Source: Eledone cirrhosa (lineage: Eukaryota). Taken from it: a DNA stretch of 64,000 nt. Both the position numbers and the translations under genes were made by a program. Of the stretch, positions 9,201 through 57,271 are shown piece by piece. The first letter of the stretch is position 1; each line of letters starts with the position of its first letter. The DNA lies in the NCBI GenBank assembly GCA_964016885.1, contig OZ024743.1, forward strand, positions 172,360,001-172,424,000. Reading direction: 5' to 3'. The notes beneath the pieces were generated by a model. The model saw nothing but the letters and a program-made list of their open reading frames with translations. It did no database searches and was not told the origin of the DNA.

Positions 9201-10908
9201 TTTCTTTATCACTTACGATCTCATTGTTTTCATTTTGAGTTTCATCTTGAGCATGCACTCCCTCCACTTTTTCGATCCTTTCTTTAATTTGTTCTGTTGT
9301 CAGTGATTCCGCCCCAATTTACCTCGTTTTCACTGACACATGTTTCGTTTTCCCTTCGCTGACTTTGTGCTAATAGCTTGATCTGCTCAATTTCTATATC
9401 AGTTAGTAACTTTTTTTTTACAGTATTTCTTCGTATATTGGCTAGTTTGTTACTGTCAATATAGCCTCTGTTTTCGGGATGTTTCTTTTTCCAGTTGATA
9501 TATGTCTGTTCTGTATTCGATGTATTTGATGGGTAGTACATTGAAGAAAGCCTTAAGAACTTCTTTATTGTATTCCCTTGACCATTTTTCTCTCTTTTTC
9601 TTTGGATTTCTTGGTGGTGAGCATGGAGGGCCAACAGTAGGAGTATTCCGGTTATGGGAGGTCTCCAGCTCCGAGGTGATGGTAAGGTTTGAACCATTAG
9701 CTGATTTTTCGACCCCAGTCTGGTTCCTCTCTGAGGGACGCGGCCCTTTTTGACCCGGGTGACGGCCGATCTGGTATGAGATTTTATCATTAGACATTTA
9801 CTTTATTTTGTCGCATTTTATCCTTATCCGCCAAGGGGTAATCATTTCGTGTTACCACTTCTAGAACGAGTGTCAACCAAGACTAGAGGGGTCGTCCTCC
9901 CCTAGAGACACGGCTATTCCCCGCCGGCCGCCATCCCGGTATTTCTTGGTCACGGGGTTTTCTTTTTTGTTGTTTTTTTAAATTGTTATTATCATGAGTG
10001 GTTCCTTAATGTGAGCATTGCGTGGCTTAAGAATGAAATTATTAATAATATAATATACTTTTTGCTGAAGTTGCCTGTTATTGTTGTTGGCTATGTCGGT
10101 GGTGGTGCTGGGGCTTTTTCTATTGTTGGTGGAGAAGGGGGAGCCAGCAGTGACATAGTCGTTGACGTTTGGCCGGTGGCCGGGTCACTAAGTCAATCTA
10201 TTTATATCTTTTGCTAGCCTCTCCCTTGTCTAGTGATACCGCCACCTTCCCCTTTCTTAAGTTAGAAGGTAATGGAGGAATAGTGGTGGTAGCAATGAAG
10301 GAGTGGTGGAGGCGGTGATGGGATAGTGGTAGCAATGATGGATGGAGTGATGGCGTTGTCGTTACTTAGTTTTGTTGAATAGACTGTAGTTTTGTTCGAT
10401 CTGTGTATCTATGCGTTTGTCGCGTATGTTTAATATATGTGTTGACATATTTTCTTAATATTGGAATTAAACATTTTGTGACAACTTGAGACAATAATAA
10501 TATTAATTATTATTATTATGCTGGGATTGGTGGTGGTGGTGGTGGTGGGGAAATTGCCGTTATCTGGCTGTTGTATTTAGTGTACACAGAGGGGTGATGT
10601 CATAGGTGGTGTATCTAGTTTGTGGTGTTGGTGAAATTGCTGTTATTTGTTCTATATAGTGTAGACAGAGGGGTTTTTTTTCCATTTGTAACCATTTTCT
10701 TTTTTGAATATAAAATGTATAATATAAAATTAAATATTTGAGCGATATAACAGGATATTATGGATCCGAATTTTTCGAGGCTTGGGTTTGTTGCTTTATG
10801 TATCATTTGCACTAAGAATTGTTATTTCACAATTGATTTAAATATGTTAAAAATCAAAAACTTACGGGAGCGATTTCATGACCTATCCACTACGTACGTC
10901 TTCTTCCC
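6228..10908 (-). mobile_element. Near full-length R4/Dong family B LINE with a frameshifted ORF (about 9797 to 6300) and 5' leader
   Basis: ORF pieces carry DYKKAFDS, IFQADSLSP (QGD mutated), FYMDDLKL, CRVC..H..C, RHD and RPD..D..K..KY (RLE); ~190 bp lost near 6308 relative to the 21618 copy; flanked by TTA. Confidence 0.92.
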
Positions 10909-11011: not shown

Positions 11012-14000
11012 TCCTTGAATCTCAGTCATTGATGTTGGTTAACTGGAAAGTCCGTTGGATTTAATATCAAGCCACTACCTGCAGCCTCAGATATTCAGGA
11101 CGTATCGGAGGGTTCTTGCTGTTCCAAGCAAGCATGCCTTTTGAAGCGTTCCAAAAAGCGTGAAGGGGCCGATTTTCTTTAACCATCCCTGGAAACCTTT
11201 GGAGATAGTCCCCAGTGCGCCTATGACAATCGGGATCACTTTGACTTCATGGCAGTTCCAAATCCTTTTCACCTCCCACTTTAGGTCCTGGTATCGGTTA
11301 ATTTTCTCCCTCTCCTTCTCTTGCACTCTCGTGTCGAACGGGCAGGCCACATCCACAATCAGGCACGATCTTTTTTCTTTGTCCACAACCACCAGGTCAG
11401 GTCTATTGTGTTCCAGTTTTTTGTCCGTCTGTATCCTAAAATCCCACAGCACCTTCACCTGACTGTTCTCCATCACCGCCTCTGGCCTATGCTCATACCA
11501 TTTCTCAGAATGTGGTAGATTGTTTACTTTGCACAGGTGCCAGTGGATCACCCTGCCCATCACATCGTGTCTCCAGCCCTTATAGTGGGTCTGGGCTAGG
11601 TGTTTACACTCGGACACAATGTGAGCCACAGTCTCCTCTCTCTCTCCACAGATCCTGCACAGTGGGCTAGCCTCCTCCTTGTAGATATGGTGCTTCAACC
11701 ACTTCGTTTTGAGGGCCTGCTCCTGCGCAGCCATTAGCATTCCTTCTGTAGCCTTTTTGAGGTCTCCTCTTCTCAACCAGTTCCATGTCTGTGGATCTCT
11801 AAATTCAGTTTTCTCAAAGAAGGTACTATGAAGGGATTTTCCCTTAAGGCTGCTCTTCCTCCTTGATGTTATTTCCTCGTTGGACATCCCCTGGCCTATT
11901 GTCCCCTCCTTCAGTACAGTTCTGAGCATTGGCTCCTTACTATAGGTCACGTATTTGTATAGGTTGTTTTTCTCCATCTGAACACAGTCCTCTATGCTGA
12001 TAAGACCTCTTCCACCCTCAGATCTCCTTAGGTAGAGTCTATCGACATCACTCCTCTTGTGGAACATGTTGTAGATAGTCAATAGCTTCCTAGTCTTCCT
12101 ATCCATTTCTTTTTGTTCAGCAACATTCCATCTCAGAATTCCCGCACTGTACCTAATAATAGACACAGCTCGGGAATTTACTGCGCTTATGGCATTTCTG
12201 CTGTTCAGATGTGACTTCAATACGCTCCTTACTCTCCGAATGTATTCAGTTCTTAACAATTCCTTCATTTTTTTGTTCTTTATGCCATCAGCCTCCAGAG
12301 CGCCCAAATACTTGTATCCTTCCTCAGAGTCAATTTCCTTTATCATCTCACCTGTTGGTATCTGGATTCTGCTCAACCTACCCCTCTTCACCACAATGAC
12401 TCCACATTTACCAATACCAAACTGCATACATATATCACTGCTGAAAATACGGACAGTGTCAACAAGCACATCCAACTCCTTCTCACTTTTCCCGAAGAGC
12501 TTAAGATTGTCCATGAAGAGGAGGTGATTGATGGTAAGCTCTCCCCTTCCCAACTTGTATCCTGCTCTCACTTTTCGCAGCATAATGGTCAAGGGCATCA
12601 GGGCAAGGACAAACAACAGAGGGGACAGGCTATCTCCCTGGAAGATACCTCTCTTGATCTTCACGCTTCCCAAGGATACTCCAGTTGATGTCAACTCTGT
12701 CTCCCAGGACCCCATACTCCTGCCCAGCAACTGTCTGATGTTATCTGCCACCCTGAAGACCTCCAGGCTTTTGGTGATCCAGGAATGAGGCACCATGTCA
12801 AATGCCTTTCTGTAGTCTATCCATCCCATGGCAAGATCAGTGTGTCTCCTCCTGCAATTCCCCATTACCATCTTATCTATAAGCAACTGGTCCTTTGTAC
12901 CACGTGACTTCTTTCGGCATCCTTTCTGTTCGTCCGGTAACAAGTTGTTTGTGTGGAGGTGATGGTAGATTTCCTCAGACACAATGCTCGTCAACAGTTT
13001 CCACATTACGGGCAGACATGTGATAGGTCTATAGTTGGTAACATCATTACCCTTGATTCGGTCTTTCATTATCAGAACTGTGGTACCTTTTGTCAACCAC
13101 TCTGGCACCTCATCCGACACCAAGCAGTCATTGAACATGGCCGTCAGCTTCGGGTGGAGGGATGTTAAATGTTTAATCCAATACCCCTGCACACCATCTG
13201 GGCCTGGTGATTTCCAGTTGGTTAGTTTTTTGGCTTGCCCCTTAAGAGTTTCAACTGTGATACTCAAATCAGTCTGTTGTTGTGCCTTCTCACCGATCTC
13301 CCTCTGTACTGTCTCAATCCACCATGCCTGGGCATTGTGTCTAACATCCTGCTCCCATATTCCTCTCCAGAATGTTTTAGCTTGTTCCGCCCCAGGGATC
13401 AAGTCGTTGCCTCTTTCTTTCCCCTCAAGCTGTCCAAACAGCATCTTCTGGTTGTTGTCGAACATGCGGTTCTGTTTATACTGACTGACTCTGTTCTCGT
13501 ATCGCCTGATTTTGGCACTCTTTGCTACAATGCGTTGCTTCAATTCCTCTATGATAATATTTAGCTTTTTACTCCTAGTTTTGTATTTTATTTCCAGTCT
13601 ATTTTTAGTGCCTATGTTTTTTAGTGTCCCATTCAGTAGTGACTCAAGCTTTCCTATGTCATTTCTCATTTCCCCGATTTGCCCACTCAGTTGCTTCTTC
13701 CACCACGGCTCTGCTCTTTCTTGTCTGTTGTTTCCTCTCGCTTTTATACGAAGTAGTTTCCTCACCGTATTTGCTGTTGCTTTGAGGATATTGTTGCACT
13801 GGTGAAGACTCCTCGCCTCAAGGTATGGGATGACTTTGTTTACCTTAGCTGTTGTTTCTTTTAACTTTTTCCTGTCTACAAATCTTAGGTTCATAGGTCT
13901 CCCACTATCATTGTTCAATTCATCTACCACTAGATTTAGGATGTCAACCGAATCTTGTCCTAGCCCGTCAGCATTCATCTCCTCAGTGGCCGTATCTCTG

Positions 14001-15547
14001 TTCCAGGTATTATTTATCTCAGTGTTCAGATCATTGTCTGCTTCGGGTGGTTCCTCCGTTCTCTCGACCTCTACACCTTCATTTCCCACTGGCTCGTTTG
14101 TCTGGCATACTACACCCGCCATCTCCAAGCCATTCTCTCTGCTCAGTTCCTCCAGTTCCAGCTCGCTTATCCACCCATTAGTTCTTATTACCCGAGCCTG
14201 CCCGGCCAATTTTTGTTCATCTAATTTAAATAAACCAATCTCGTTCCAGATGTTATGCATCCGTCTCCTGTAGCCCCTCTCCTTGGGGTTACTTTTCAGG
14301 TAGCATTGCATAACAGTTCTATTCAATTCTTTCGTCCAGTTGGTTCTGGCCCCTTTCCTTCTTCTTCTTCCTCCAACATCAGCAGTATTTGGTTGACAGT
14401 CAGGTTCCTGCTGCTGAGCCAGGGGGCACCTGTTGGGTGAGAGTCTGTCACATGACGTTCTAGTCTCCATTTCACCGTTATTCGAACTGTTTATGTTCGA
14501 TATTTAAACACTCTTATCGAGGATTGGCGAATGTATGTTTACATAGCCATCTGTGGATCCGCCATCCCACTTGGCCCTTGTGTGGCATTATCACCACGCT
14601 GTATACGAACACACATAAACAAACAAACACACGGGCAGAAAGGGCCCCAAAAATGAATAAGCATAAGTTTCATTGTAATGTAGTATTCGAATGTCTGACT
14701 TAGTTTTTGTTTTTTAAGTTTTACTTTTTCCCCCCTCTTCTCTGTCCGTCCGCCTGCTTCTCTCTTCATTCTTATTTTCTTTACGTTTTGGGGGTTTCTT
14801 TTTTTGTTTTTGTTTTTCTCTGTTTGTTTTTCTCGTTTTTTGCTGTTGTTGCTGTGCTGCTTTGGTTTTGTTGTTTGTTTTTTCTTTTTTCTTTTGAGTC
14901 TATCTATATATTTTGATGCCTTCCTCTTTGTTACTAGTAGGGATTCTATAATGTGGAAGTAGTAGCAGCCAGCAGGGAGAAGTGGGAGAGGGCGGCGTTG
15001 GCGATACTGAGACAGTGGTGGTGGTGATGTCGATACCGAGGCAGTGGTGGCGGTGATGCGACCGTATTACTGTAGTGATGGTGCTGTAGCGGTGGCAGCA
15101 GCAGTGAAGGAGTCAATGGGTGGTGGCGGCGGTGATGGGATAGTGGTGGTAATGATGGCCGTAGTGAGCGGTGGCGGCGAAGGTGAAAATGCTGTTGTGT
15201 TTAGTGTACACAGATGATGGGGTGGGTGGTGTATCTAGTTTCTGTTGTTGGTGAGTTTAGCTGTCCTATATAGTGTAGCCAGAGGAGAGGAGGGGGGGGG
15301 GGTCTTCTTCTTCCATTTATAGCCATTTTTTTTTGGGATATACAGTGTACAATACAAAGTTGAATATTTGAATATTTGAGCCTTATAACAATATATTTTG
15401 GGTCCGAATTTTTTGGGGCTCAAGCCGGGTGCTTTACGTAACATTTGTACTAAGAGTTGTTATTTCACAAATGATTTAAATATGTTAAAAATTCAAAACT
15501 TACGGGAGCGATTTCATGACCTCCGTCACCTCGTGCGTCTTCTTCCC
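11011..15547 (-). mobile_element. Full-length R4/Dong family A LINE
   Basis: Single ORF plus 3' UTR and ~1.08-kb 5' region, collinear with 33275-37453; bounded by TTA tracts. Confidence 0.95.
11087..14470 (-). CDS. R4/Dong polyprotein: RT, CCHC knuckle and restriction-like (PD-D/ExK) endonuclease, 1127 aa
   Basis: [38 protein letters not shown] (catalytic DD changed to DN), CRICGEREETVAHIVSEC, RHD, RPDLVVVD..IVDVACP..EKINRY. Confidence 0.93.
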   Translation of the reverse strand: METRTSCDRLSPNRCPLAQQQEPDCQPNTADVGGRRRRKGARTNWTKELNRTVMQCYLKSNPKERGYRRRMHNIWNEIGLFKLDEQKLAGQARVIRTNGWISELELEELSRENGLEMAGVVCQTNEPVGNEGVEVERTEEPPEADNDLNTEINNTWNRDTATEEMNADGLGQDSVDILNLVVDELNNDSGRPMNLRFVDRKKLKETTAKVNKVIPYLEARSLHQCNNILKATANTVRKLLRIKARGNNRQERAEPWWKKQLSGQIGEMRNDIGKLESLLNGTLKNIGTKNRLEIKYKTRSKKLNIIIEELKQRIVAKSAKIRRYENRVSQYKQNRMFDNNQKMLFGQLEGKERGNDLIPGAEQAKTFWRGIWEQDVRHNAQAWWIETVQREIGEKAQQQTDLSITVETLKGQAKKLTNWKSPGPDGVQGYWIKHLTSLHPKLTAMFNDCLVSDEVPEWLTKGTTVLIMKDRIKGNDVTNYRPITCLPVMWKLLTSIVSEEIYHHLHTNNLLPDEQKGCRKKSRGTKDQLLIDKMVMGNCRRRHTDLAMGWIDYRKAFDMVPHSWITKSLEVFRVADNIRQLLGRSMGSWETELTSTGVSLGSVKIKRGIFQGDSLSPLLFVLALMPLTIMLRKVRAGYKLGRGELTINHLLFMDNLKLFGKSEKELDVLVDTVRIFSSDICMQFGIGKCGVIVVKRGRLSRIQIPTGEMIKEIDSEEGYKYLGALEADGIKNKKMKELLRTEYIRRVRSVLKSHLNSRNAISAVNSRAVSIIRYSAGILRWNVAEQKEMDRKTRKLLTIYNMFHKRSDVDRLYLRRSEGGRGLISIEDCVQMEKNNLYKYVTYSKEPMLRTVLKEGTIGQGMSNEEITSRRKSSLKGKSLHSTFFEKTEFRDPQTWNWLRRGDLKKATEGMLMAAQEQALKTKWLKHHIYKEEASPLCRICGEREETVAHIVSECKHLAQTHYKGWRHDVMGRVIHWHLCKVNNLPHSEKWYEHRPEAVMENSQVKVLWDFRIQTDKKLEHNRPDLVVVDKEKRSCLIVDVACPFDTRVQEKEREKINRYQDLKWEVKRIWNCHEVKVIPIVIGALGTISKGFQGWLKKIGPFTLFGTLQKACLLGTARTLRYVLNI

Positions 15548-15615: not shown

Positions 15616-15822
15616 GGCGACCTACGTAGTAAATCGTATCATCGTGAGCTCCGCAAATGTTTGTTATTTCCGTTTGTTAAAAATTGTCATTTATGGAAAA
15701 TTTTATTGTTAACTGTTTATAAGCGCACATACATTGTTTTCCGAAAAGGACACCCAAAAAGATTGGGGCCTTGTGCCCAAAATTTTAACTTTTATTATTA
15801 TCAAAAAATTTCTTTGAAAAAA

Positions 15823-17827
15823 ATGGCTAATTCACCTCTGCAACAAGCAGCTGAAAGCCTTCCTCACAAATTAACACCTCACACCGAGACCACCTTTGTA
15901 AATGTTACTACGTTTGCCAACACAAAAAAAAATATAAGCAGTAGCAATATTTTAAATTTGTCTCAGGCAGACATACATTTCCCGCCATTACCAATGACTG
16001 CAGGTGTTAAAGCCTCCACCACCACCACCACCGCGACAACCACCACCCCCACCACCACCGCGACAACAGAAACAAAAGAAGAAAAAAATAAATTAACTCG
16101 TGATGTCGAAATGAAATCAAGCAAAATGGACTCTTCCCCACCAAAGACGACTGACGTCACCACCACCACAACTGAAACTAAAATTAATATTAACGATAGC
16201 AACAACAACAACAATGACATTATAACCCCCCCCCCCCTCAGTTTCGCCAGAGTAGCAAAACAATTCGAAGCATTTACGGTAACTCAGGAAGATTTAGAAA
16301 AGGCCAAACAAATGGTAAAGAAAGATGGGTACAGGGTCAGCCTCACACCCCCCACCTAATAAAATGGAGCATCGGCGCCTATGCACCGTGTCGTATAGAA
16401 CAATAAATGTAAAATCGCGCCGAGTGGAACGGGCATCCGTGTCCCAAATCCAAAAAGCTTTGGGACATGTGTGGGCAAGAAAAACCCACATCAGACGTGG
16501 GCAAAAGTATGGAACCGTGGACGTGTTCTTCGAAACACCAGAGGAGGCTAGAGAACACTCCATGGCCCCATTAAAAAGTGACGACTTCACACTCGTCCCA
16601 AGCTATTGTGGCCAGAGACTCGTAAAGATCAGGGTGACCCACGTTCCACCGGCCATCGAAAATCCCTGGCTAATAGCGGCCGTCCTCGCCGGCATCGAAG
16701 CCAACACGAAAATAATAGCAATAGCAAAAGAAAAGCAGGAAAACTGGTCCGGATCTGGGATGGAGCTCCTGATCCAAGCGGACCAAAAAAGCATTGAGGA
16801 GATCCCAGAGGTAATAGACCTCACTGACGGCAGCCACCTCACGGTAATTGTCGAGGGCAGAAGACCTAGGTGTGTCGTTTGTGGTGAAGGAACCCACCTA
16901 AGGGCTTTCTGCCCTCAGGCTAAAAGGTTGAGGCCACCTCTCCTACCCACCCCAGTGACACAACCATCAACACCACCAGTAGCAGAGATGGCAGCAACAA
17001 CTGTAGCAGCAACAACTGTAGCAGCAACAACAGAAGCAACTATAACAGCAACAACCCCAGCAACAGTAGCAAAACCAACACCACCACCACCACCAGCAAA
17101 ACCAACACCACCACCACCCAACGCTTCAGAACTAGCACCAGCGCCTACACCATCCACCACGCCACAACCAAAACTAACGGCTGTGGAGGATTTTCCACTC
17201 CCCGGCCTATCACAACTGGAGACAGATTGTGACGACGAGGAGTTGGAAACGATATCCGGAAAAAAAAAGAGAAACCAAAAAAGAAAAAATTCTCTTCCTT
17301 CCCCCTCCAAAAACAAAATACAGAGGGAAACAAATAAATTAAGAAACAAAAAAGTTAGGACAGATATGCCACCATCCACACCAGCATCACCAACCCCATC
17401 AACCCAAACACCAACACCATCACCATCATTAACCCCAACACCACCATCACCTACACCACAAAAGTCACCAAAATGCGAAACAGAAACAAACCCACAACAA
17501 ACGCAAACAAAACAAAACAACCAAAACGATACACACTACACAGCATTACATTTGAACAACAAGCAATTATTACACTACATCCAACACAACACCAGCATCA
17601 CAGAAACAGACTACACAACAACCCCAAAATTCACACCACCTCCACACATACAAATCACTCGCATCACACATAAAACGTACATGACACTAAAACAAAAATT
17701 CCCCAAAGACATCGGAGACTTCCGACAAGCACTCTCCAGGAGGATTTATAAGGACATCCTTCCTGAGGAGGCCACAAGCAGTGAAAAGGATGGAAAAACC
17801 GTCCTTCCCCTACGAGAAGTAAGGTAA
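15823..17827 (+). CDS. Tx1 ORF1 (gag-like nucleic-acid-binding protein) with one frameshift at the C6 run 16348-16353
   Basis: ATG at 15823 (MANSPL...); joins the 16325..17827 frame containing CX2CX4HX4C (CVVCGEGTHLRAFC) and Pro/Thr-rich and basic tracts. Confidence 0.8.
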
Positions 17828-17861
17828 GTGGTCTTTCCCATCTTTTCCACTCCTTTTCAAC

Positions 17862-20800
17862 ATGACCTCACTCAGAATAGGCAGCATAAATGCGCGTGGC
17901 TTGGGGTCGTCATGGAAGCAGGGCCACCTGCTCAACGACCTCAGGTCACTAAACATAGATGTAGTGGCCATCAGCGAGACCAGAATCTCCGAAGCACAGG
18001 CTTTCGCACCGATCTTCGGCGGCTACGATGTGTACGCATCTCCCAGCCGTCCGGGATCGGGGAGAGGAGTTGCTGTGCTTTTTCGGAGAGGTTTGGATCT
18101 TGCCATACGGGCCATCTTCCTGGAGCCAGAAGGTAAGTTGGTGGTGCTGGACATGACCAGCGGAGACGGGCAAGCTTTCAGGTTAGTGGCCGTCTATGCC
18201 CCGACAGGAGCAGGGCGGCCTGATTTCTTCCGGCGTCTGGAGACCTTTCTTGGAACGTCCCGCTCTTTAGTGTTAGTGGGCGACTGGAACGGGATCTTAG
18301 ATGCACGCTGGGATTGTGTGGGATTAGTGAATAGGGAAGGAGGGTGCAAGAGTCTCACCAACCTGCTCAGACGTTTTGAACTGTCTGACAGGTACCGAAT
18401 GGATTTCCCGAATGTACCAATGTGGACTTGGACAAATCGCATAGGGTCATCCAGATCATATCTAGATAGAGTATTTTGTAGGGAAATAGATAGGTCTAGC
18501 ATAGGCTGTCCACAATTCAAGATAGTCAGCTACACGGACCACAAATTCGTGATCTGTGTGCTTGACGTAGATAGGCTTCATAGGCGAGGACCCGGCTACT
18601 GGAAGCTAAACACGTCCTTACCGGCGCGCAAGGCCTACAGAGACTGGATTAGCGAACTAGTTAAGCGGGCGTTGACGGGGGCCATCGTCAACAACAAGTG
18701 GTGGTTTGCTCTGAAAAGAGCAATTAGAATAGAGTCCATTAGGTTTAGTAAGACTTTAGCAATAGAGAAAAATAGAGCAGAGGGAGAACTAGTTAGAAAA
18801 TTAGATGAGGCGCTTAGCAAAGGCATCGCGACCGACGTACTTGCGGCGAAATTGGCCCTTGACCAATTCTTCAATGCAAAGCACGAAGGCTGCGTTGTCA
18901 GAGCTAGGGTGCGTGCTCTCAGACACGAGGGGACGAAAGCCGTTCAATGGGCCCGAGTGGCGGAGGCGCGTCGTGGCAACAAAGCCACGATCCGGTCTTT
19001 GGTGGACCACTACGGGCGCATGCTACTCGATTCCGGGCAAATGTGTGAAGCTTTTCAGCGACACTTCGCTCAACTGTTCGGGGGCAGTGGCGGGCCGGAT
19101 CGAGGGATGGACTTTAGTGTCTACCTCGACGGACTGCCGCGGCTTTCGGCCACTGAGCCGGAGTGTTGCGAAAAGCCGATAACAACCGCTGAAGTACGGG
19201 ATGCAATGACTAGTTGCACAAGGGGTAAATCGCCTGGTTTGGATGATCTGCCCTATGAACTTTACGTACAAATGCCAAACTTGTTCGGAGGCCTCTTGGC
19301 GGACGTCTACTGCAACTGGCAACAGAACGGGAGAATTCCCAGCTCTGTGAGCCGAGGAGCGGTGGCGCTGCTGAGAAAGGATCCGAACAAGGGGGATAAC
19401 ATAGATAATTTTAGGCCCATAACTCTGCTAAACACAGAGTTCAAGATTTTGGCCATGGTGCTAGCAAAGAGGTTGGCGCTTGTCGTTGGTGGTCTGGTGG
19501 GAGAGGCACAGACATGCGCCATTCCCGACAGATCCATCCACGACAACCTCCACCTCATGCGATACATCGTAGAGAGGGTAGCTAGGGAACCTGGCAAGGG
19601 TGGGTCTTTGATCAATTTAGATCAATCGAAAGCCTTCGATAGGGTCGACCATCGTTACCTAGCGGCAGTCCTGTGGGCGGCTGGCTTTGGGCCCGTCTTC
19701 AGAGGCTGGATCGCTGCCATGCACAGCGACATCTGCTCTGTAGTGAGAGTGAACGGTCACCTTTCGGAACCGTTCAACATCATGCGCTCGGTCCGCCAAG
19801 GATGTCCCCTCTCGTCCCTATTGTACGTATTGACTCTCGAGCCATTACTGCACAAACTGGAGACGTTGAGGGGGGTCCCGCGCGAACTAGGATGCGGAAG
19901 ATCTGTGTCAGCATATGCCGACGATGTCACCGTAGTGGTGTCGAACGCCAAACACATCGAGGCGATCGGCACTACACTAATAGAATACGAAGCGGTGACA
20001 GGAGCAATGATCAACCAGGAAAAGTCAGTGGGCCTGCAGCTCGGCACCTGGAGAGGCAGGTCCATGCCGTCCAACAGCGTCGTCGGGCGCTGGACGGACG
20101 GACCGGTTAAATTGCTAGGGGTCTGGTTCGGTCCAGACCTCCAGACGGACAAAAACTGGGACGAGGTGACCAGCAGGTTGGCTTCTCTCACCCAGAAATG
20201 GGCCGAGAGGAAGCTATCCCTGAAAGGTCGAGCGGAGGTGGCGAATGCGTACATCGCATCCGTCATCTACTACCGCCTGACCGTCGTACCTTGTCCTAAG
20301 CCCCGCCTGACTGCGCTGGAGCGTTTGCTGTTTCGCTTCTTGTGGAAGGGACGCGCTCCGATGATCAGGCCGTCCATCTGCTGTCAACACCCGCTACGTG
20401 GAGGGCTGGGCATGCCGTGGCTGATGATGCGCAGACACGCGCTCAGGCTACGACATCTCCACCTCTTCCTCGACGGTGATCAGGTGTGGTCGCCGTTTGC
20501 TAGACACGTCTTTCCCCAGCTCGTCTCCTTGACGGAGCTGCAGTCCTGGGTCAAGCGAAGACCGAGAGGGAGCGCTTGGAGACTGGAATGTCTTCAGGCG
20601 CTCACAGCCCTCGACCAATCGGGCAATGTGATCGGTGGAAACTCCACCTTGGCGTTCTATAGGGGATTAGTGGAGGGGAAGAGCGACGACGTACTTGGAG
20701 AAACTCTAGGCGTCGACGAAAATCAACTAGCCAATCTCTTCGGAAGGAATTTCGGGCCGGGGCCTATGGACAACTTCCAGAAATCCCTGGCCTGGCAGTG

Positions 20801-21281
20801 CTACCGAGGAGCTTTGCCAGTTCGGGATAAACTCTACAGGCATGGAGGTGCCGTCAGCCGGGCATGTCCGAGATGCGCGCAGGGCGACGAAACCGTCCTG
20901 CACGCACTCGTCCAGTGTCTGAGCATTGCTGACTTGTGGGTTTATGTCGAACACCTGCTGTCACGTGTAGGACGGATCCAGCTATCAGCTGAGTCCATCG
21001 TGAGGATTGCCCCGCCGCCTTCCTTTAGCCGGGAAGGGCAGGCAGTTTTTATCTGTCTGGTGGCCATGGCGAAAGAGATAGTATGGTGGACACGTTTGAA
21101 AGGGCTGAAGACGAGCACTTACCTCTTCGGTGATGCCCTGATTAACTTTTTCAAATTTCATTTGAAAAGGAAAATCAGGGTAGAGAGGGAAGTGCTCTCT
21201 TCCCAGCATGTTGTTGAAAGATGGGTGAGAGAAGCAAGTATGGCCCGAATGAATGGGCCTTCTCTGAGTATGTGTCTGTAA
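17862..21281 (+). CDS. Tx1 ORF2: apurinic-like endonuclease, reverse transcriptase and C-terminal zinc finger, intact 1139 aa
   Basis: APE motifs SINARGL, ISET, VYAP, VGDWN, YLDR, TDH; RT motifs FRPITLLN, DQSKAFDRVDH, VRQGCPLS, AYADD; CPRC..ETVLHALVQC. Confidence 0.95.
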   Translation: MTSLRIGSINARGLGSSWKQGHLLNDLRSLNIDVVAISETRISEAQAFAPIFGGYDVYASPSRPGSGRGVAVLFRRGLDLAIRAIFLEPEGKLVVLDMTSGDGQAFRLVAVYAPTGAGRPDFFRRLETFLGTSRSLVLVGDWNGILDARWDCVGLVNREGGCKSLTNLLRRFELSDRYRMDFPNVPMWTWTNRIGSSRSYLDRVFCREIDRSSIGCPQFKIVSYTDHKFVICVLDVDRLHRRGPGYWKLNTSLPARKAYRDWISELVKRALTGAIVNNKWWFALKRAIRIESIRFSKTLAIEKNRAEGELVRKLDEALSKGIATDVLAAKLALDQFFNAKHEGCVVRARVRALRHEGTKAVQWARVAEARRGNKATIRSLVDHYGRMLLDSGQMCEAFQRHFAQLFGGSGGPDRGMDFSVYLDGLPRLSATEPECCEKPITTAEVRDAMTSCTRGKSPGLDDLPYELYVQMPNLFGGLLADVYCNWQQNGRIPSSVSRGAVALLRKDPNKGDNIDNFRPITLLNTEFKILAMVLAKRLALVVGGLVGEAQTCAIPDRSIHDNLHLMRYIVERVAREPGKGGSLINLDQSKAFDRVDHRYLAAVLWAAGFGPVFRGWIAAMHSDICSVVRVNGHLSEPFNIMRSVRQGCPLSSLLYVLTLEPLLHKLETLRGVPRELGCGRSVSAYADDVTVVVSNAKHIEAIGTTLIEYEAVTGAMINQEKSVGLQLGTWRGRSMPSNSVVGRWTDGPVKLLGVWFGPDLQTDKNWDEVTSRLASLTQKWAERKLSLKGRAEVANAYIASVIYYRLTVVPCPKPRLTALERLLFRFLWKGRAPMIRPSICCQHPLRGGLGMPWLMMRRHALRLRHLHLFLDGDQVWSPFARHVFPQLVSLTELQSWVKRRPRGSAWRLECLQALTALDQSGNVIGGNSTLAFYRGLVEGKSDDVLGETLGVDENQLANLFGRNFGPGPMDNFQKSLAWQCYRGALPVRDKLYRHGGAVSRACPRCAQGDETVLHALVQCLSIADLWVYVEHLLSRVGRIQLSAESIVRIAPPPSFSREGQAVFICLVAMAKEIVWWTRLKGLKTSTYLFGDALINFFKFHLKRKIRVEREVLSSQHVVERWVREASMARMNGPSLSMCL

Positions 21282-21552
21282 ATTAAAGGTGGAAAACTGG
21301 GAGAGGGCACTTGCCCTGGTGGTCAGGGCCACTGTGGTCTTTTAATGGGCTTTCTCCACAAATGTCCCTCGGAAGTCTACCCCCTATTGGGGAATTTTTC
21401 TTTGTTATTTTATTTCAACCTCCGTTTTTTTTACACGCAGAAATGCCCATTTGTACCGTCCTGTATTGTTCTGTACTGTCCTTAATGTCTACTTTATGTA
21501 AACCCTTGTGGTTATAAAGAAAACATTATTATTATTATTATTGTTATTGTTA

Positions 21553-29013: not shown

Positions 29014-29035
29014 ATTATTATTATTATTATTATAA

Positions 29036-29216
29036 GGGCGGTGAATTGGCAGTATCGGTGGAGGGTCTGACGCCATGCTTTCCATAGTTACGTCCCTTCA
29101 CGATCTGAGTTCAAATCCAGCCAAGGTTAACTTTGCCTTTCATCCTTACGGGGTCGATAAAATAAAGTGCCAGTAATGTACTGGGTAATTGCTGGCCTTG
29201 TGCCTAAAATAGAAAC
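29036..29216 (+). mobile_element. tRNA-derived SINE (same family as 4465)
   Basis: Same head, B box, core and tail; TTA on both sides. Confidence 0.9.
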
Positions 29217-29217
29217 A

Positions 29218-29269
<52 letters not shown>

Positions 29270-29270
<1 letters not shown>

Positions 29271-32200
29271 AGTTACATTTATCTTGCTTTATGTTCATAC
29301 GAGTTATCACCAAGTCACAACCAGTGACCTCAAGAGACAACAAGGTCCCCCATGTTCAAGAAAGAACATACATACTCACACATGCATCTTTAGTGTTTAG
29401 ACTTGTGATGTACTTATATTGACAGAATCTTCCTTAGTATATGGGCAGTTCCCATTAGTACTATCTTTTGTATTTCTCCTATACACGGGTTTCCTGGAAT
29501 TTGCGATAAGTAATCATTAGACCCCTTAGGTATCATTCCCAGAGCGCCTACAACCACTGGTATTGTTTTAGTTCTCAATTTTCACATTTTTCCAATTTCT
29601 ATCTCCAGGTCCTTATACTTGCTCAATTTTTCAAATGTTTTTATAGATACATTCTTGTCTATTGGAACAGACATATCAATTAGCAGGCATACCCTCTTTT
29701 GAAAGTCTTTCAATATTATATCAGGTCTGTTTGCATCTATTTTTCGGTCTGTTTGGATGCTAAAGTTCCACAAGATTGAGATGTGATCTTTTTCAAGTGT
29801 GGGAGGTGGTTGATGCTCCCACCAATTCTTTTGATGGGGCAGGTCAAAATGCTTACACATTATCCAATGTATGTATTGTGCAGCTCTGTCATGCCTGTTT
29901 AGGTATTCGGTTGGAGCTATAGGACTGCACATTGAAATTATATGGTCAATGGTCTCTGGTTGTTTTTTGCATACACGGCATAATGGGCTGCATCCATTTT
30001 TTATTATGTTGGCTTGGTAATTTTTTGTTGGCAGACACTGATCTTGTGCTGATATAATCAGTCCTTCAGTCTCCGATTTCAGTCCAGAGGATGCCAACCA
30101 CTGACAGGTTAAGGTTTTGTCAACATCAGGATTGTTAGCTCGTTCTGGGTATTTTCCATACAGAGGCTTTTCTTGCCATTTCTTAGCCAGTTTCTGTAGC
30201 AGTTCTTTCTTTGCAGTTACTTTTACCTGCTTTGCTTTTTCTGTGTTTTCCATTTCAGCAGTAAATGGGACTTCTGAAATTTGTAGTCCATTACTGTATC
30301 TTTGTGCATCTTTTGTAATGGAATATGATCTTCTGATGCTTTCGTGTTTCAAAACGAGTTTGATCATCCAATCATGTGATTCCCTTAGATATGTAGATAA
30401 TCCAATTGTTGCAGTTTTCAACGCAATGTCTAACTGGATTAACCCACGTCCTCCTTCTTTCCTAGGGAGATATATTCTATCTGTATCTGCCTTAGGGAGA
30501 TGCATTCTGTGCATGGTTAAGAATTTTCGAATGTTTGTATTGAGCCTACGGATCTCTGTGCTTGACCAGTTGATGACATTGTAACTGTAGGTTACTACTG
30601 GTATGGCAAGCGTGTTTATGGCATCGATCCTATTCCTTGCATTCAATTCCGTTCTTAAGATTGCTCTTACTCTGCGGTAACATTCCTTCCTTATCCTTTC
30701 CCTCATTGTCGAGTGCTTGATTCCGTCTCCTTCACAAACACCTAGATATTTGTAAGTTTTTTCTTGATCAAGTTCTCTTATCACATTCCCCCGATCAAGA
30801 TTAATGTCTGAACTCTTCAGCAGCTTTCCTCTGGTGAACGATGGTTTTGGCGCATTTATCTAGTCCAAATTCCATTTTAATGTCATCACTGAACTGCTCC
30901 ACAGTGGATAATAGCCCTTGCAATTGTTCATCATTTTTTGCAAATAGTTTCAGGTCATCCATGTAGAACAAGTGATTAATGGTTTTGTCATAGACTTTAT
31001 ATCCATGTTTTGTTTCATTGAGCATTTTACTTAATGGTATAAGTGCGATGCAGAATAAAAGCGGTGATAAAGAGTCACCCTGAAAAATTCCACAATTAAT
31101 ATTAACTTCTCCAGCTTCCAGTGATTTTGTTTCACTATGCAAAAGGAGTGTCGTTTTCCATGTCTTCATACTGAATGACAAAAACCTCCTGACAACGGGG
31201 GATATTTTGAAAATCTCTAAACATTTTTCAATCCAACTGTGTGGCAAACTATCGAATGCTTTTTTATCCAAGCAATTGATAGATTTTTGTGTCTATTATG
31301 ACAATCTTCCAGTATCATTTTGTTAACCAAAAGCTGATCCTTACAGCCATATGAGACTCGTTTACACCCTTTCTGTTCAATGGGAAATAGGTCATTTGTT
31401 ATCAGGTGGTCATATGTGTATTCAGTTAGGACTGATGTTAAAATGTTATACATTGTGGTCAAGCAAGTTATCGGTCTGTAATTTTTGGGATTGTTTGTCT
31501 CATCATTCTTCGGAAGCAGGAATGTAATGCCGTTAACTAGCCATGATGGTATCTTTTCTGGCTCCTTAACTATTTCATTGTAAATTTGGGCTCACAGCTC
31601 ATGAGACTCTGTGAAGGCATTTATCCAAAAAATTTGTATTTTGTCTTTTCCTGGGGATTTCCATTTGCTGGTTTTTCTTAGAGCCAAGCGCAACTGTTCA
31701 ACTGTTATATTTTCCCATGTTTGTTCCTCAAGGTGAGCTGTATCTTTCATTTGTCTGTCTATCCATGGGGCATGTATGTTATGAACTTTTTCTTCGGCCC
31801 AGATCTTTTCCCAGAATTCTTGCACTTCCTACTTGGGTGATATTGATTTAGCAGTTATTGTAGACTTACCAATTTTCCTGTAGAAGTTTCTTTGGTTGTT
31901 TTTGAACATATTATTGTCCCTATAGAATCTAGATCGTTTTTCAAAGCGCCTTATACGAGCAGCTTTGGCCGACACTTTTTGCTTGATTATTTCTATCAGC
32001 ATGTCTATGTCACATGTTGATTTTATACTGTACTTTTTTTTCAATTTTCTAAGTTTAGTTTGTTTAACATGTTCACCTACTTTATAGTTTGTTAAAATTT
32101 CTATGTCAGATCGGAGAAGGTTTATTTGGCGATTGGTGTTCTCTTGCCAAGTAGATTTCTTGTGGGAATTCCTTTGTTTTTTCATCTTCACTCCACATAA

Positions 32201-33238
32201 GTGAGTGGTGACTTTAGCCTATGCATAATAGAGATGATTTAAGTCAGTAATGTTTAGTTTGTTTGTGATGATAATGTTTTTGAGAATTATGTTAGTCTTG
32301 TGTATTATCTTTTGGTTCTGTTTGGAGTTCTGGATCTTAGGGAGGGTGTCTCGTTTCCCCATGTCAGATTCTTTCATTTCCAGCAATCACCCAGTGCATT
32401 ACAATAATATAATATACTTTTTGTTGTAGTTGGCTGTTATTGTTGTTGGCTATGTCGGTGGTGGTGCCGGGGCTTTTTATATTGTTGGTGAGGAAGGGGT
32501 GAGCCAGCAGTCCCATAGTTGTTGATATTGTCGTTTGGCCTTGGCCAGGTCACTAAGTCAATCTATTTATATCTTTTGCTAGCCTCTCCCTTGTCTAGTG
32601 ATACCGCCACCTTCCCCTTTCTCTCTCAAGTTAACAGGGGAATAGTGGTGGTAGCATTGAAGGAGTGGTGGCGGCGGGGAGATGTGGGAGACAGTAGCGG
32701 CGGTATCGATACTGAGACAGTGGTGGTGGTGATGTCGATACCGAGGCAGTGGTGGTGGTGACGTGATCGTATTACTGTAGTGATGGTGTTGTAGCGGTGG
32801 TAGCAATGAAGGAGTGGTGGCGGCGGTGATGGGATAGTGGTGGTAATGATGGCAGTAGTGAGTGGTAGTGGTGAAATTGCCGTTATCTGGCTGTTGTGTT
32901 TAGTGTACACACAGAGGTGATGGGGTAGGTGTTGTATCTAGTTTCTGGTTTTGTTTGGCTGTTCTATATAGCGTGGACAGAGGAGGGGTTTGGTTCTTCT
33001 TCCATTTATAGCCATTTTCTTTTTTGAATATACAATGTACAATACAAAGTTGAATATTTGAATATTTGAGCCTTATAACAATATATTTTGGGTCCGAATT
33101 TTTTGGGGCCCAAGACGGATGCTTTACGTAGCATTTGTACTAAGAGTTGTTATTTCACAAATGATTTAAATATGTTAAAAATTCAAAACTTACGGGAGCG
33201 ATTGCATGACCTTCCGTCACCTCGTGCGTCTTCTTCCC
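29270..33238 (-). mobile_element. Dong family B copy with an internal deletion near 32380 and the 5' leader
   Basis: Collinear with the other B copies; the region equivalent to ~9150-10040 is missing; leader at 32403-33238. Confidence 0.92.
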
Positions 33239-33274
33239 TTATTATTATTATTATTATTATTATTATTGTTGTTA

Positions 33275-36200
33275 TTCCTTGAATAACAACAATACGATCT
33301 TTTTTCTTTGTCCACAACCACCAGGTCAGGTCTATTGTGTTCCAGTTTTTTGTCCGTCTGTATCCTAAAATCCCACAGCACCTTCAACTGATTGTTCTCC
33401 ATCACCGCCTCTGGCCTATGCTCATACCATTTCTCAGTGTGTGGTAAATTGTTTACTTTGCACAGGTGCCAGTGGATCACCCTGCCCATCACATCGTGTC
33501 TCCAGCCCTTATAGTGGGTCTGGGCTAGGTGTTTACACTCGGACACAATGTGAGCCACAGTCTCCTCTCTCTCTCCACAGATCCTGCATGGTGGGCTAGC
33601 CTCCTCCTTGTAAATATGGTGCTTCAACCACTTCGTTTTGAGGGCCTGCTCCTGCGCAACCATTAGCATTCCTTCTGTAGCCTTTTTGAGGTCTCCTCTT
33701 CTCAACCAGTTCCATGTCTGTGGATCTCTAAATTCAGTTTTCTCAAAGAAGGTACTATGAAGGGATTTTCCCTTAAGGCTGCTCTTCCTCCTTGATGTTA
33801 TTTCCTCCTTGGACATCCCCTGGCCTACTGTACCCTCCTTCAGTACAGTTCTGAGCATTGGCTCCTTACTATAGGTCACGTATTTGTATAGGTTGTTTTT
33901 CTCCATCTGAACACAGTCCTCTATGCTGATAAGACCTCTTCCACCCTCAGATCTCCTTAGGTAGAGTCTATCGACATCACTCCTCTTGTGGAACATGTTG
34001 TAGATAGTCAATAGCTTCCTAGTCTTCCTATCCATTTCTTTTTGTTCAGCAACATTCCATCTCAGAATTCCCGCACTGTACCTAATAATAGACACAGCTC
34101 GGGAATTTACTGCGCTTATGGCATTTCTGCTGTTCAGATGTGACTTCAATACGCTCCTTACTCTCCGAATGTATTCAGTTCTTAACAATTCCTTCATTTT
34201 TTTATTCTTTATGCCATCAGCCTCCAGAACGCCCAAATACTTGTATCCTTCCTCAGAGTCAATTTCCTTTATCATCTCACCTGTTGGTATCTGGATCCCG
34301 TTACTTCTGCTCAACCTACCCCTCTTCATCACAATGACTCCACATTTACTAATACCAAACTGCATACATATATCACTGCTGAAAATACGGACAGTGCCAA
34401 CAAGCACATCCAACTCGTTCTCACTTTTCCCGAAGAGCTTAAGATCGTCCATGAAGAGGAGGTGATTGATGGTAAGCTCTCCCTTTCCCAACTTGTATCC
34501 TGCTCTCACTTTTCGCAGCATAATGGTCAAGGGCATCAGGGCAAGGACAAACAACAGAGGGGACAGGCTATCTCCCTGGAAGATACCTCTCTTGATCTTC
34601 ACGCTTCCCAAGGATACTCCAGTTGATGTCAACTCTGTCTCCCAGGACCCCATACTCCTGCCCAGCAACTGTCTGATGTTATCTGCCACCCTGAAGATCT
34701 CCAGGCTTTTGGTGATCCAAGAATGAGGCACCATGTCAAATGCCTTTCTGTAGTCTATCCATCCCATGGCAAGATCAGTGTGTCTCCTCCTGCAATTCCC
34801 CATTACCATCTTATCAATAAGTAACTGGTCCTTTGTACCACGTGACTTCTTTCGGCATCCTTTCTGTTCGTCCGGTAACAAGTTGTTTGTGTGGAGGTGG
34901 TGGTAGATTTCCTCAGACACAATGCTCGTCAACAGTTTCCACATTACGGACAGACATGTGATAGGTCTATAGTTGGTAACATCATTACCCTTGATTCGGT
35001 CTTTCATTATCAGAACTGTGGTACCTTTTGTCAACCACTCTGGCACCTCACCCGACACCAAGCAGTCATTGAACATGGCCGTCAGCTTCGGGTGGAGGGA
35101 TGTTAAATTTTTAATCCAATACCCCTGCACACCATCTGGGCCTGGTGATTTCCAGTTGGTTAGTTTTTTGGCCTGCCCCTTAAGAGTTTCAACTGTGATA
35201 CTCAAATCAGTTTGTTGGTGTGCCTGCTCACCGATCTCCCTCTGTACTGTCTCAATCCACCCTGCCTGGACATTATGTCTAACATCCTGCTCCCATATTC
35301 CTCTCCAGAATTTTTTAGTTTGCTCCGCCCCAGGGATCAAGTCGTTGCCTCTTTCTTTCCCCTCAAGCTGTCCAAACAGCATCTTCTGGTTGTTGTCGAA
35401 CATGCGGTTCTGTTTATACTGACTGTCTCTGTTCTCGTATCGCCTGATTTTTGCACTCTTTGCTACAATGTGTTGCTTCCGTTCCTCTATGATAATATTT
35501 AGATTTTTCCTCCTAGTTTTGTACTTTATTTCCAGTCTATTTTTAGTGCCTATGTTTTTTAGTGTCCCATTCAGTAGTGACTCAAGCTTTCCTATGTCAT
35601 TTCTCATTTCCCCGATTTGACCACTCAGTCGTTTCTTCCACCACGGCTCTGCTCTTTCTTGTCTGTTGTTTCCTCTCGCTTTTATACCAAGTAGTTTCCT
35701 CACCGTATTTGCTGTTGCTTTGAGGATATTGTTGCACTGGTGAAGGCTCCTCGCCTCAAGGTATGGGATGACTTTGTTTACCTTAGCTGTTGTTTCTTTT
35801 AACTTTTTCCTGTCTACAAATCTTAGGTTCATAGGTCTCCCACTATCGTTGTTCAATTCATCTACCACTAAATTTAGGATGTCAACCGAATCTTGTCCTA
35901 GCCTGTCAGCATTCATCTCCTCAGTGGCCGTATCTCTGTTCCAGGTATTATTTATCTCAGTATTCAGATCATTGTCTGCTTCGGGTGGTTCCTCCGTTCT
36001 CAGGACCTCTTCACCTTCATTTCCCACTGGCTCGCTTGTCTGGCATACTACACCCGCCATCTCCAAGCCATTCTCTCTGCTCAGTTCCTCCAGTTCCAGC
36101 TCGCTTATCCACCCATTAGTTCTTATTACCCGAGCCTGCCCGGCCAATTTTTGTTCATCTAATTTAAATAGACCAATCTCGTTCCAGATGTTATGCATCC

Positions 36201-37453
36201 GTCTCCTGTAGCCCCTCTCCTTGGGGTTACTTTTCAGGTAACATTGCATAACAGTTCTATTCAATTCTTTAGTCCAGTTGGTTCTGGCCCCTTTCCTTCT
36301 TCTTCTTCCTCCAACATCAGCAGTATTTGGTTGACAGTCAGGTTCCTGCTGCTGAGCCAGGGGGCACCTGTTGGGTGAGAGTCTGTCACATGACGTTCTA
36401 GTCTCCATTTCACCGTTATTCGAACTGTTTATGTTCGATATTTAAACACTCTTATCGAGGATTGGCGAATGTATGGTTACATAGCCATCTGTGGATTCGC
36501 CGTTCCACTTGGCCCTTGTGTGGCATTATCACCACGCTGTATACGAACACACATAAACAAACAAACACACAGGCAGAAAGGGCCCCAAAAATGAATAAGC
36601 ATAAGTTTCATTGTAATGTAGTGTTCGAATGTCTGACTTAGTTTTTGTTTTTTTAGCTTTAGTTTTTCCCCCCTCTTCTCTGTCCGTCCGCCTGCTTCTC
36701 TCTTCATTCTTATTTTCTTTACGTTTATTGTTTTTGTTTTTCTCTGTTTGTTTTTCTCGTTTTTTGCTGTTGTTGCTGTGCTGCTTTGGTTTTGTTGTTT
36801 GTTTTTTCTTTTTTCTTTTGAGTCTATTTTTGATGCCTTCCTCTTTTTTAGTAGTAGGAATTATATAATGTGGTGGCAGCAACCAGCTAGAAGAAGTGGA
36901 AGACAGTAGCGGCGGTAGCGATACTGAGACAGTGGTGGTGGTGATGTCGATACCGAGGCAGTGGTGGTGGCGATGTGATCGTATTACTGTGGTGATGGTG
37001 TTGTAGCGGTGGTAGCAGTGAAGGGGTGAAGGAGTGGTGATGGGATAGTGGTGGTAATGATGGCAGTAGTGAGCGGTGGTGGTGAAATTGCCGTTATCTG
37101 GCTGTTGTGTTTAGTGTACACAGGTGATGAGGTGGGTGGTGTATCTAGTTTCTGGTGTTGGTGAGTTTGGCTGTTCTATATAGTGTAGACAGAGGAGAGG
37201 AGGGGGGGGGTCTTCTTCCATTTATAGCCATTTTCTTTTTTGGATATACAGTGTACAATACAAAGTTGAATATTTGAATATTTGAGCCTTATAACAATAT
37301 ATTTTGGGTCCGAATTTTGGGGGGCTCAAGCCGGGTGCTTTACGTAGCATTTGTACTAAGAGTTGTTATTCCACAAATGATTTAAATATGTTAAAAATTC
37401 AAAACTTCCGGGAGCGATTTCATGACCTCCGCCACCTCGTGCGTCTTCTTCCC
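33275..37453 (-). mobile_element. Dong family A copy with intact RT (FMDD) but a deleted RLE C-terminus and 3' UTR; ORF 33217..36408
   Basis: ORF is open from METRTS to RPDLVVVDKEKRS, then reads into the TAA tract; full 5' leader present. Confidence 0.93.
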
Positions 37454-44300: not shown

Positions 44301-44902
44301 TCACATTGTATCCGAGTGTAAACACCTAGCCCAGACTCACTATAAAGGCTGGAGACATGATGTGATGAGCACTGGCACCTATGCAAAGTAAACAATTTAC
44401 CACATTCTGAGAAGTGGTATGAACATAAGCCAGAGTCGGTGATGGTAAACGATCAGGTGAAGGTGCTATGGGATTTTAGGATACAGACGGACAAAAAACT
44501 GGAACACAATAGACCTGACCTGGTGGTTTTGGACAAGGGAAAAAGATCGTGCCTGATTGTGGATGTAGCCTGCCCATTCGACACGAGAGTGCAAGAGAAG
44601 GAGAGAAAATTAACCGATACCAGGACTTAAAGTGGGAGGTAAAAAGGATTTGGAACTTCCATGAGGTCAAAGTGGTCCCGATTGTCATAGGCGCACTAGG
44701 TACTATCTCAAAGAGTTTCCAAGGATGGTTAAAGAAAATTGGTCCCGTCCCGCTTTTTGGAACACTTCAAAAGGCATGCTTGCTGGGAACAGCAAGAACT
44801 CTACGATACGTCCTGAATATCTGAAGCTGCAGGTAGTGGCTTGATACTCATTTCAACAAACTTTCCAGTTAAATAACATCAATGACTGAGACTCAAAGAG
44901 CA
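41298..44902 (+). mobile_element. Dong subfamily A2 copy, degenerate, with the leader truncated
   Basis: ORF pieces 41563-44824 with FMDD and RLE motifs, many stops and a deletion near 42800; (AAT)n tail. Confidence 0.92.
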
Positions 44903-44914
44903 ATAATAATAATT

Positions 44915-45101
44915 GTTTCTATTTTTAGGCACAAGGCCAGCAATTATCCAGTACATTACTGGTACTTTATTTTATCGACCCCATAAGGATGAAAGGCAAA
45001 GTTAACCTCGGCGGGATTTGAACTCAGATCATAAAGGGACGTAACTCTATGCTTCAAAACATGGTGTCCGACTCTCTACCGATACTGCCAATCCATGGCC
45101 C
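44915..45101 (-). mobile_element. tRNA-derived SINE, tail-to-tail with Dong A2
   Basis: Reverse complement of the 4465 family. Confidence 0.9.
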
Positions 45102-45117
45102 TATAACAATAATAATA

Positions 45118-53870: not shown

Positions 53871-54130
53871 ATGAACAGCACCTGTATTTCAAAGGGCCAG
53901 TGTGAGTGTGTGTGTGACGGCTTTTCGCGTGTTAGACTACATACAAGAGCTGTGTAGTCACGCTATCGTTAATACGTCAGGATTATGTGTTGCAGTGAAA
54001 AATATTTAATTCTAAAAAGAAAAGAATTCTAAAAAACAAACAAATCAAGGAAGAAAACATTTTAAGAAATACGAGATTTAAGTAGACTACCAAGTAGAAG
54101 AAATATTGTTGAGATAAATGAGATATAACT

Positions 54131-54317
54131 GTTTCTACTTTTGGCACAAGGCCAGCAATTATCCAGTACATTACTGGTACTTTATTTTATCGACCCCGTA
54201 AGGATGAAAGGCAAAGTTAACCTCGGCGGGATTTGAACTCAGAATGGCAAGGGCCGTAACTCTATGCGTCAAAGCATGGCGTCCAACCCTCTACCGATAC
54301 TGCCAATTCACCGCCCT
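54131..54317 (-). mobile_element. Full-length SINE (4465 family) with an 11-bp target-site duplication
   Basis: TGAGATATAAC at 54119-54129 and 54317-54327. Confidence 0.92.
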
Positions 54318-57270: not shown

Positions 57271-57271
57271 T

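Follow-up and report, generated by a model that had tools for sequence, protein, structure and literature searches.

A probable Tx1-derived 5' leader shared by two Dong retrotransposon families in Eledone cirrhosa

The stretch of Eledone cirrhosa DNA analysed here (64,000 nt; contig OZ024743.1, positions 172,360,001 to 172,424,000, referred to below as the window) holds LINEs clustered around TAA/TTA arrays and belongs to a genome of 3.0 Gb. On its minus strand lie four copies of a 5' leader attached to Dong elements, and each begins immediately after a (TAA)n array. A first-pass annotation had described this leader as collinear with the start of a Tx1 element on the opposite strand of the window, and the sequence strings that it quoted lie where it placed them. 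The locus raises the question of whether an element with a restriction-like endonuclease (RLE) can have acquired the 5' end of a LINE from the apurinic endonuclease (APE) superfamily and, if so, from which source and with what effect. The features needed to follow the argument are listed here, beginning with the copy under study (32403..33238).

33239..33265, strand (.): (TAA)n target array at the 5' junction of the 32403..33238 leader
33012..33238 (-): leader head, type I, homologous to Tx1 5' UTRs; its first base, G, directly follows the (TAA)n array
32403..33011 (-): leader body, with a short uORF, ACC-rich low-complexity modules and a ATAAATAGA block; without significant ORF1 similarity
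32380..32402 (-): remnant of a SINE 3' fragment that is fixed in the type I Dong-B leader, cut by an internal deletion here
29270..32382 (-): Dong-B body, with reverse transcriptase (RT), CCHC and PD..D endonuclease motif; about 0.9 kb of the 5' region deleted
10040..10908 (-): type II leader on a Dong-B copy, about 80% identical to type I, without the SINE fragment
11087..14503 (-): single ORF of Dong-A, a 1138-codon open frame with RT, CCHC and RLE motif and no APE
14950..15547 (-): Dong-A leader of type I, facing Tx1-W head-to-head over a TAA/TTA array
36850..37453 (-): type I leader of another Dong-A copy (ORF 33294-36441, 3' part deleted)
15616..15822 (+): Tx1-W 5' UTR, 207 nt, beginning after (TTA)n
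15823..17827 (+): Tx1-W ORF1, with a low-complexity N-terminus, a conserved domain and a CCHC knuckle; frameshifted at a poly-C run near 16350
17862..21281 (+): Tx1-W ORF2, with APE, RT and zf-RVT; its closest PDB matches are L1 ORF2p

Dong families and their common leader

The 1138-codon frame of Dong-A contains Pfam RVT_1 and lacks Exo_endo_phos, and the 779-aa frame of Dong-B matches RVT_1 only. Translations of both families show a C-terminal CCHC and a PD..D restriction-like endonuclease motif (read by eye), and the closest PDB matches of Dong-A are R2 proteins. Insertion into (TAA)n is evident from the TAA arrays at the ends of both families, in the window and in the fetched loci. From this architecture and target, together with the accepted classification of such elements, we take Dong-A and Dong-B to belong to the R4/Dong clade, the homologue matches carrying no family names. 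The two are distant relatives, with proteins 41% identical and no BLASTN similarity between their DNA. A third family, Dong-C, resides in TACA repeats and is 30-34% identical to Dong-A and Dong-B; its 5' UTR is unrelated to the leader head, which matched none of 20 Dong-C loci. Dong-C (L234, L239, L246) is an abundant Dong-like family with many 1174-codon open frames, and its 5' end starts with AAAATGGCG, which resembles a YY1 site.

At the copy under study, the type I head carries the 13-mer TCGCTCCCGTAAG, which it has in common with Tx1, at 33201-33189, and ends in AAAATGG, with the ATG at 33015-33013. The uORF in the leader body has 25 codons here and 16-43 codons across type I copies. The Dong ORF lies 0.9-1.1 kb downstream, beyond the uORFs. 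In intact type I Dong-B leaders the SINE 3' fragment is about 50 nt long, is flanked by ATTATT and comes from the same SINE as the repeat at 4463-4663. The studied copy is a deletion derivative in which the leader is joined straight to the Dong-B body through the internal deletion of about 0.9 kb; in 28 of the 29 other type I loci the leader is followed by the Dong-B 5' region, and the remaining one (1/29) enters Dong-A. A conserved motif at 33196-33186 ends in GTAAGT, a sequence like a 5' splice donor, and donor-like sequence is found at a similar place in Tx1-W and Tx1-C.

Two other repeats of the window deserve mention. A SINE-like repeat of about 200 nt that ends in TTA repeats is present at 4463-4663, 29034-29229, 44901-45102 and 54125-54317; it occupies the same arrays as the LINEs and also inserts into Dong leaders. 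A large inverted repeat covers 57262-61565 (57262-58567 against 60309-61565, 91% identity), with shorter inverted repeats nested in it.

Genome searches show that the leader is a feature of dispersed, amplified families, as the first-pass annotation had supposed. All 90 loci from three leader searches (30 each for types I, II and IV) run on into Dong-A or Dong-B. With the head of the 32403-33238 copy as query (type I), the 30 loci were spread over 10 contigs; 29 of them, among which is the window copy, lead into Dong-B and one into Dong-A. The head of the 10908 copy (type II) gave 23 loci entering Dong-B and seven entering Dong-A, seven of the 30 loci in this sample being members of one tandem array. 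Type IV, defined from a copy (L186) that happened to lie in one of the arbitrarily picked stretches of genome, leads into Dong-A sequence at 30 of 30 loci and into Dong-B at none. Exact genome matches numbered at least 1,994 for a 19-nt motif of the head and 961 for a 26-mer across the leader/Dong-B junction, and the reversed controls gave none in either case. Local duplication as the source of the leader-Dong copies is ruled out by the spread of the type I loci over 10 contigs, and single contigs from two other organism labels (X4, X7) span the 3' part of the leader into the Dong-B ORF, an assembly artefact thus being excluded as the cause of the junction.

The leaders comprise at least three types of graded age, of which type IV is the oldest (median copy-to-consensus identity 99.1% for type I, 98.4% for type II and 95.7% for type IV). 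Type I leaders of Dong-A and Dong-B are about 91% identical over 560 nt, although the proteins behind them are only 41% identical and the elements share no BLASTN similarity; the leader has therefore moved from one family to the other at some point. The seven type II Dong-B copies of the tandem array stand head to tail with a period of about 4.9 kb (G000:C2:353.61-353.64 Mb; L062-L067, L072). A subfamily of Dong-A (L142-L169) has one to three tandem copies of a leader module of about 440 nt, similar in this to mouse L1 monomers.

Relationship of the leader head to Tx1 5' UTRs

The Tx1 element of the window, Tx1-W (15616-21525), has two ORFs, and its ORF2 contains Pfam Exo_endo_phos, RVT_1 and zf-RVT, yields L1 ORF2p as top PDB match (E 1.6e-49) and has a relative at 73% identity in Argonauta hians. 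Three further families were obtained from loci flanking leaders, namely Tx1-C (L029), Tx1-D (L078) and Tx1-E (L077); an ORF1 and a W-like ORF2 were verified in each, the ORF2s being 65-94% identical to that of W. We assume the Tx1 label for W, C, D and E from the CCHC knuckle of ORF1, the zf-RVT and the microsatellite targeting, no named Tx1 being among the homologue matches.

Tx1-W and a Tx1-C copy (L222) have ORF2s 95.6% identical in DNA and ORF1s 51% identical in protein, and their UTRs and ORF1s show no BLASTN match except in the last 80 nt. The UTR of W is nearest to that of E, whereas its ORF1 is nearer to those of C and D. On these comparisons, the pattern between W and C is one of recent swapping of 5' modules within Tx1. 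The poly-C run near 16350 in the Tx1-W ORF1 varies in length among copies (L031-L060, fetched with a protein query that favoured shifted copies). A hairpin shortly before the ORF1 ATG recurs across Tx1 families (L077, L029, L078, L004, L111-L140) with different stem sequences, making it a candidate translation or RNP signal; it is also present in a further Tx1-like 5' UTR, H (L004:900-1500, minus strand), which is cut after about 330 nt by a TTA array.

The collinearity of the Dong leader with a Tx1 start holds for the first ~225 nt, which on sequence comparison are homologous to Tx1 5' UTRs; the match to the Tx1-W copy that had suggested it is weak. Window leaders reach local z-scores of 2.6-5.7 against Tx1-W with dinucleotide shuffles and 1.5-4.0 with local shuffles, while the consensuses of the young families give only 0.8 and 1.5. 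The 10040..10908 leader carries private changes that mimic Tx1-W. BLASTN of the Tx1-W 5' end against leaders returned mainly low-complexity matches at the top, the one UTR match among those listed having E 0.12. The best of the quoted landmarks, GACGTACGTAGT, proved to be present in 1 of 90 leader copies, the window copy itself; the family reads GACGCACGTGGT.

Stronger evidence came from profiles and from the older leaders. A profile built from the UTRs of W, C, D and E, with no leader sequence, was searched against 264 kb, namely the window and 200 kb of genome picked arbitrarily, where it matched Tx1 itself and five of five leader heads (E 0.002-0.06), the next match standing at E 3.9; with Tx1-E left out of the profile, no window leader matched. 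On 855 kb of loci it gave 183 matches at E<=1, made up of 98 Tx1 UTRs, 83 of 116 leader heads and two others, both of them Tx1-like 5' ends. The reciprocal profile, built from leaders only, matched 20 of 20 Tx1-E loci and none of 30 Tx1-W loci. Scores against Tx1-E grow with leader age, from 47 for type I through 55 for type II to 80 for type IV (z 5.1, 6.4 and 12.5), and the alignment of type IV with Tx1-E runs end to end, collinear to the ATG, with 134 of 207 columns identical (65%). The length of the head up to the ATG is nearly constant over leader types (220-227 nt), and the 13-mer is kept in 73 of 90 leader copies. A pattern combining this 13-mer with a Tx1-type target gave 103 matches (control 0), and the 30 that were fetched are relatives of Tx1-E, designated F and G; since the shared 13-mer served to find both, there is some circularity in their scores, E having been found independently. 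The nearest relative of the leader is among Tx1-E/F/G and not the Tx1 neighbour in the window, from which it had been thought to come.

The similarity could in principle reflect AT-rich internal promoters that converged on a few common motifs with no shared descent. Leader and Tx1 UTRs both have 30-39% GC, the young leaders are not above local shuffles against Tx1-W, and type I without the 13-mer drops to z 2.4-2.6 against E, F and G, all of which would suit such an origin. Type IV, on the other hand, holds a score of 67 (z 9.9) against Tx1-E once the 13-mer is removed, aligns over its full length and reaches z 6.2 even against Tx1-W, and none of 1,760 real genomic windows scored as high against Tx1-E as leader I or II. 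Convergence does not predict that older copies should be the closer ones, and the age gradient largely refutes it, leaving it very improbable in our estimation. We regard both the homology and the sharing of the leader by Dong-A and Dong-B as well supported by the alignments.

The proposal that the leader continues into a decayed Tx1 ORF1, read from broken frames of the form RLAK..DLAKAK..LTP, finds no support in the families. Frameshift-tolerant tests with profiles from three or four Tx1 families found no ORF1 remnant above shuffles in any register (15 of 15 cases), and a search for ORF1 homologues returned 884 candidates, none at E<=0.001. Of 30 type I copies 11 have the DLAKAK string, as against none of 30 type II and none of 30 type IV copies; the state without it is also present in sequencing runs X4 and X8. 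A profile of the W ORF1 only passed three of five tests, at a different, Pro/His/Thr-rich low-complexity site, with types II and IV failing, and in a nucleotide test of the supposed remnant block one window copy passed (z 4.7) and the other failed (z -0.4). In type IV, the ATG at the position of the ORF1 start opens an in-frame, Thr-rich uORF of 38 codons, whose likeness to the low-complexity beginning of Tx1 ORF1s is confined to composition. An ORF1 start in the leader is thus hinted at just by the position of this ATG and by the short frame behind it.

Direction of transfer and possible role of the head

Several observations suggest that the head passed from Tx1 to Dong, which we consider the likely direction. 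Type IV scores 80 against E, 65 against W, 38 against C and 35 against D, and the scores of C and D against E and W are only 35-45; the leader is therefore closer to E/W than C and D are, which, provided that rates are comparable, would put it within the radiation of Tx1 UTRs. The ATG at the end of the head opens a long ORF1 frame in Tx1-C and Tx1-D and only a short uORF in Dong leaders. The hairpin before the ATG is marked in six of eight Tx1-type UTRs (E, F, G, C, D and H; z -3.4 to -5.9) and in none of the three leader types (z -0.1 to -0.9), which we read as decay, although Dong is not alone in this loss, Tx1-W and L120 having only a weak hairpin as well (z -0.6). An unrooted UTR tree unites the three leaders in one clade (97/98) on an unresolved base and gives no direction, because the leaders are not nested inside Tx1.

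Searches for intermediates gave the following. Pattern searches of the genome, which the first-pass annotation had called for, found no Tx1 family with the leader's own start on a full ORF1. A Tx1-type head behind (TAA)n gave eight matches at six places, all of them ordinary Tx1 starts after ATT repeats, and a same-strand junction from a Tx1 5' end into Dong was found at none of the fetched loci. No leaderless ancestral 5' end of Dong-A appeared among 30 loci, of which 26 have leader sequence and four end at a TAA array at differing positions. For Dong-B, four of 22 distinct loci (25 loci minus three overlapping duplicates) begin at the leader junction; in both families such ends could be native starts or truncations by target annealing.

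These results bear on the possibility that Dong and Tx1 both took the head from a third source (a host promoter, a SINE or an extinct element), or that Tx1 took it from Dong. The unrooted tree with its unresolved base would allow this, as would the readiness with which Tx1 swaps 5' modules, W and C combining ORF2s of 95.6% DNA identity with different UTRs and ORF1s of 51% identity. Four verified Tx1 5' modules that have diverged from one another (W, C, D and E) nevertheless all carry homologous UTRs, E and W have a nearer relative in the leader than in C and D, the ATG opens ORF1 in Tx1 only, and Dong-C is without the head. Taken together, these points make an origin outside Tx1 improbable. 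With type IV found on Dong-A alone (30/30), a single capture from Tx1 followed by transfer from Dong-A to Dong-B fits better than two captures.

As to function, UTRs of the L1 group contain internal promoters. This, with the fixed 5' start of the leaders and the retention of the motif in 73 of 90 copies, is why we think that the head is likely to act as a Dong promoter. Among the matching sequencing runs listed, none was of RNA. Alternatively, the Tx1-derived head might be a passenger, with Dong RNA made by read-through from upstream tandem elements or from the host, and the fixed 5' end produced by processing or integration. Many Dong copies do follow other Dong copies in tandem, leaders have gathered SINE fragments and tandem modules as neutral sequence would, and R2 elements are freed from co-transcripts by ribozymes, according to the available part of one account (PMC3774820). 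A search of seven loci against Rfam found no family at threshold and no ribozyme at E<=0.5, though divergent ribozymes can escape such a search. The head has moreover been retained through three leader types and two families at a length to the ATG of 220-227 nt, with the 13-mer conserved in most copies, and we consider a passenger unlikely.

The history that we favour, and think probable, is that an ancestor of Dong-A captured the head of about 225 nt from a Tx1-E/W-like element, in all likelihood as an internal promoter, and that the leader then passed to Dong-B. Dong and Tx1 accumulate, it appears, in the same TAA/TTA arrays; the sense strand of Dong inserts with TAA and that of Tx1 with TTA, and the two often lie head to head in one array. 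Dong-A might have inserted in an (AAT/AAC)n tract of Asn codons close downstream of a Tx1 UTR, or the two might have been joined when the reverse transcriptase switched templates; such an Asn-codon tract is present in the Tx1-D ORF1. Either event would have placed Dong behind a Tx1 start site, and a chimeric RNA beginning at that site could then have been copied by the Dong-A protein. The start of the Tx1 ORF1 would subsequently have decayed to a short uORF and the pre-ATG hairpin would have been lost, while the motif near the 5' end was retained. Dong-B probably acquired the leader by inserting into one of its short TAA tracts: (AAT)2-3 is found where leader and Dong-B meet, and SINEs have inserted into short TAA/TTA tracts inside leaders, one of these insertions being fixed in type I Dong-B. 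Later exchanges would have brought types I and II onto both Dong families.

It is quite possible, though we offer it tentatively, that the TAA/TTA arrays of this genome let LINEs of different superfamilies trade 5' modules with one another. Such an exchange would cover an APE-derived Pol II promoter on an RLE element, its spread to a second Dong family and the swaps of UTR and ORF1 on nearly identical ORF2s within Tx1, and the captured promoter may have allowed Dong to expand outside transcribed arrays.

Comparison with known systems

The Dong leaders point to a likely case in which a 5' UTR was captured across LINE superfamilies and then exchanged among Dong families, which extends the 5' UTR replacement known within L1. 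Its value lies in a leader for which a source can be named, in another superfamily, and of which a graded series of forms survives. Set beside the Tx1 UTRs, the 225-nt head with its 13-mer also offers a direct test of how an RLE element is transcribed outside rDNA. Sharing of the leader matters for annotation too, because repeat libraries can misassign such 5' ends or merge the two families.

In the open-access PMC and bioRxiv literature we found no description of the capture of a 5' UTR by an RLE element from an APE element. Octopus genomes contain recently active families of both Dong-R4 and L1-Tx1 (PMC13282606, PMC9115989; both list Dong and one also Tx1), and the main text of these papers, as far as it was available, has no passage on shared or captured 5' UTRs, although their repeat libraries may contain these consensus ends; the accessible part of a third paper (PMC11203168) contains nothing on UTRs. 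The targeting of (TAA)n by Dong has been documented (PMC3812793) and, in the portion of that source available, the TAA target agrees with that of Dong-A and Dong-B.

The shuffling of ORF1 in Jockey-superfamily LINEs, from the available sections of its description (PMC4120745), is likewise a reticulate exchange of 5' modules between LINE lineages, comparable to that among Tx1-W, C, D and E. It concerns coding ORF1 domains among APE elements, whereas here a non-coding UTR has apparently come to lie on an RLE element. Chimeras and promoter co-option are documented for L1 itself (PMC13174262), where, in the passages at hand, sense-oriented 5' additions arise by template switch or RNA joining and a LINE can come to carry a foreign promoter. 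Those cases are mostly single insertions or occur in few copies, whereas full-length elements of two amplified Dong families are normally of the chimeric form.

The closest parallel is the replacement of the 5' UTR, and with it the promoter, in mammalian L1 (PMC3600994). In the excerpts available of that work, families whose 5' UTRs are alike do not form one clade, older 5' ends have been recruited by other 3' ends and the leader may consist of tandem repeat modules, as it does in Dong-A here. The exchanges described there took place within L1 or drew on unknown sources, whereas the source of the Dong head is identifiable and probably lies in another superfamily, a two-ORF APE element having supplied a single-ORF RLE element, and the Dong families that share the leader are only 41% identical.
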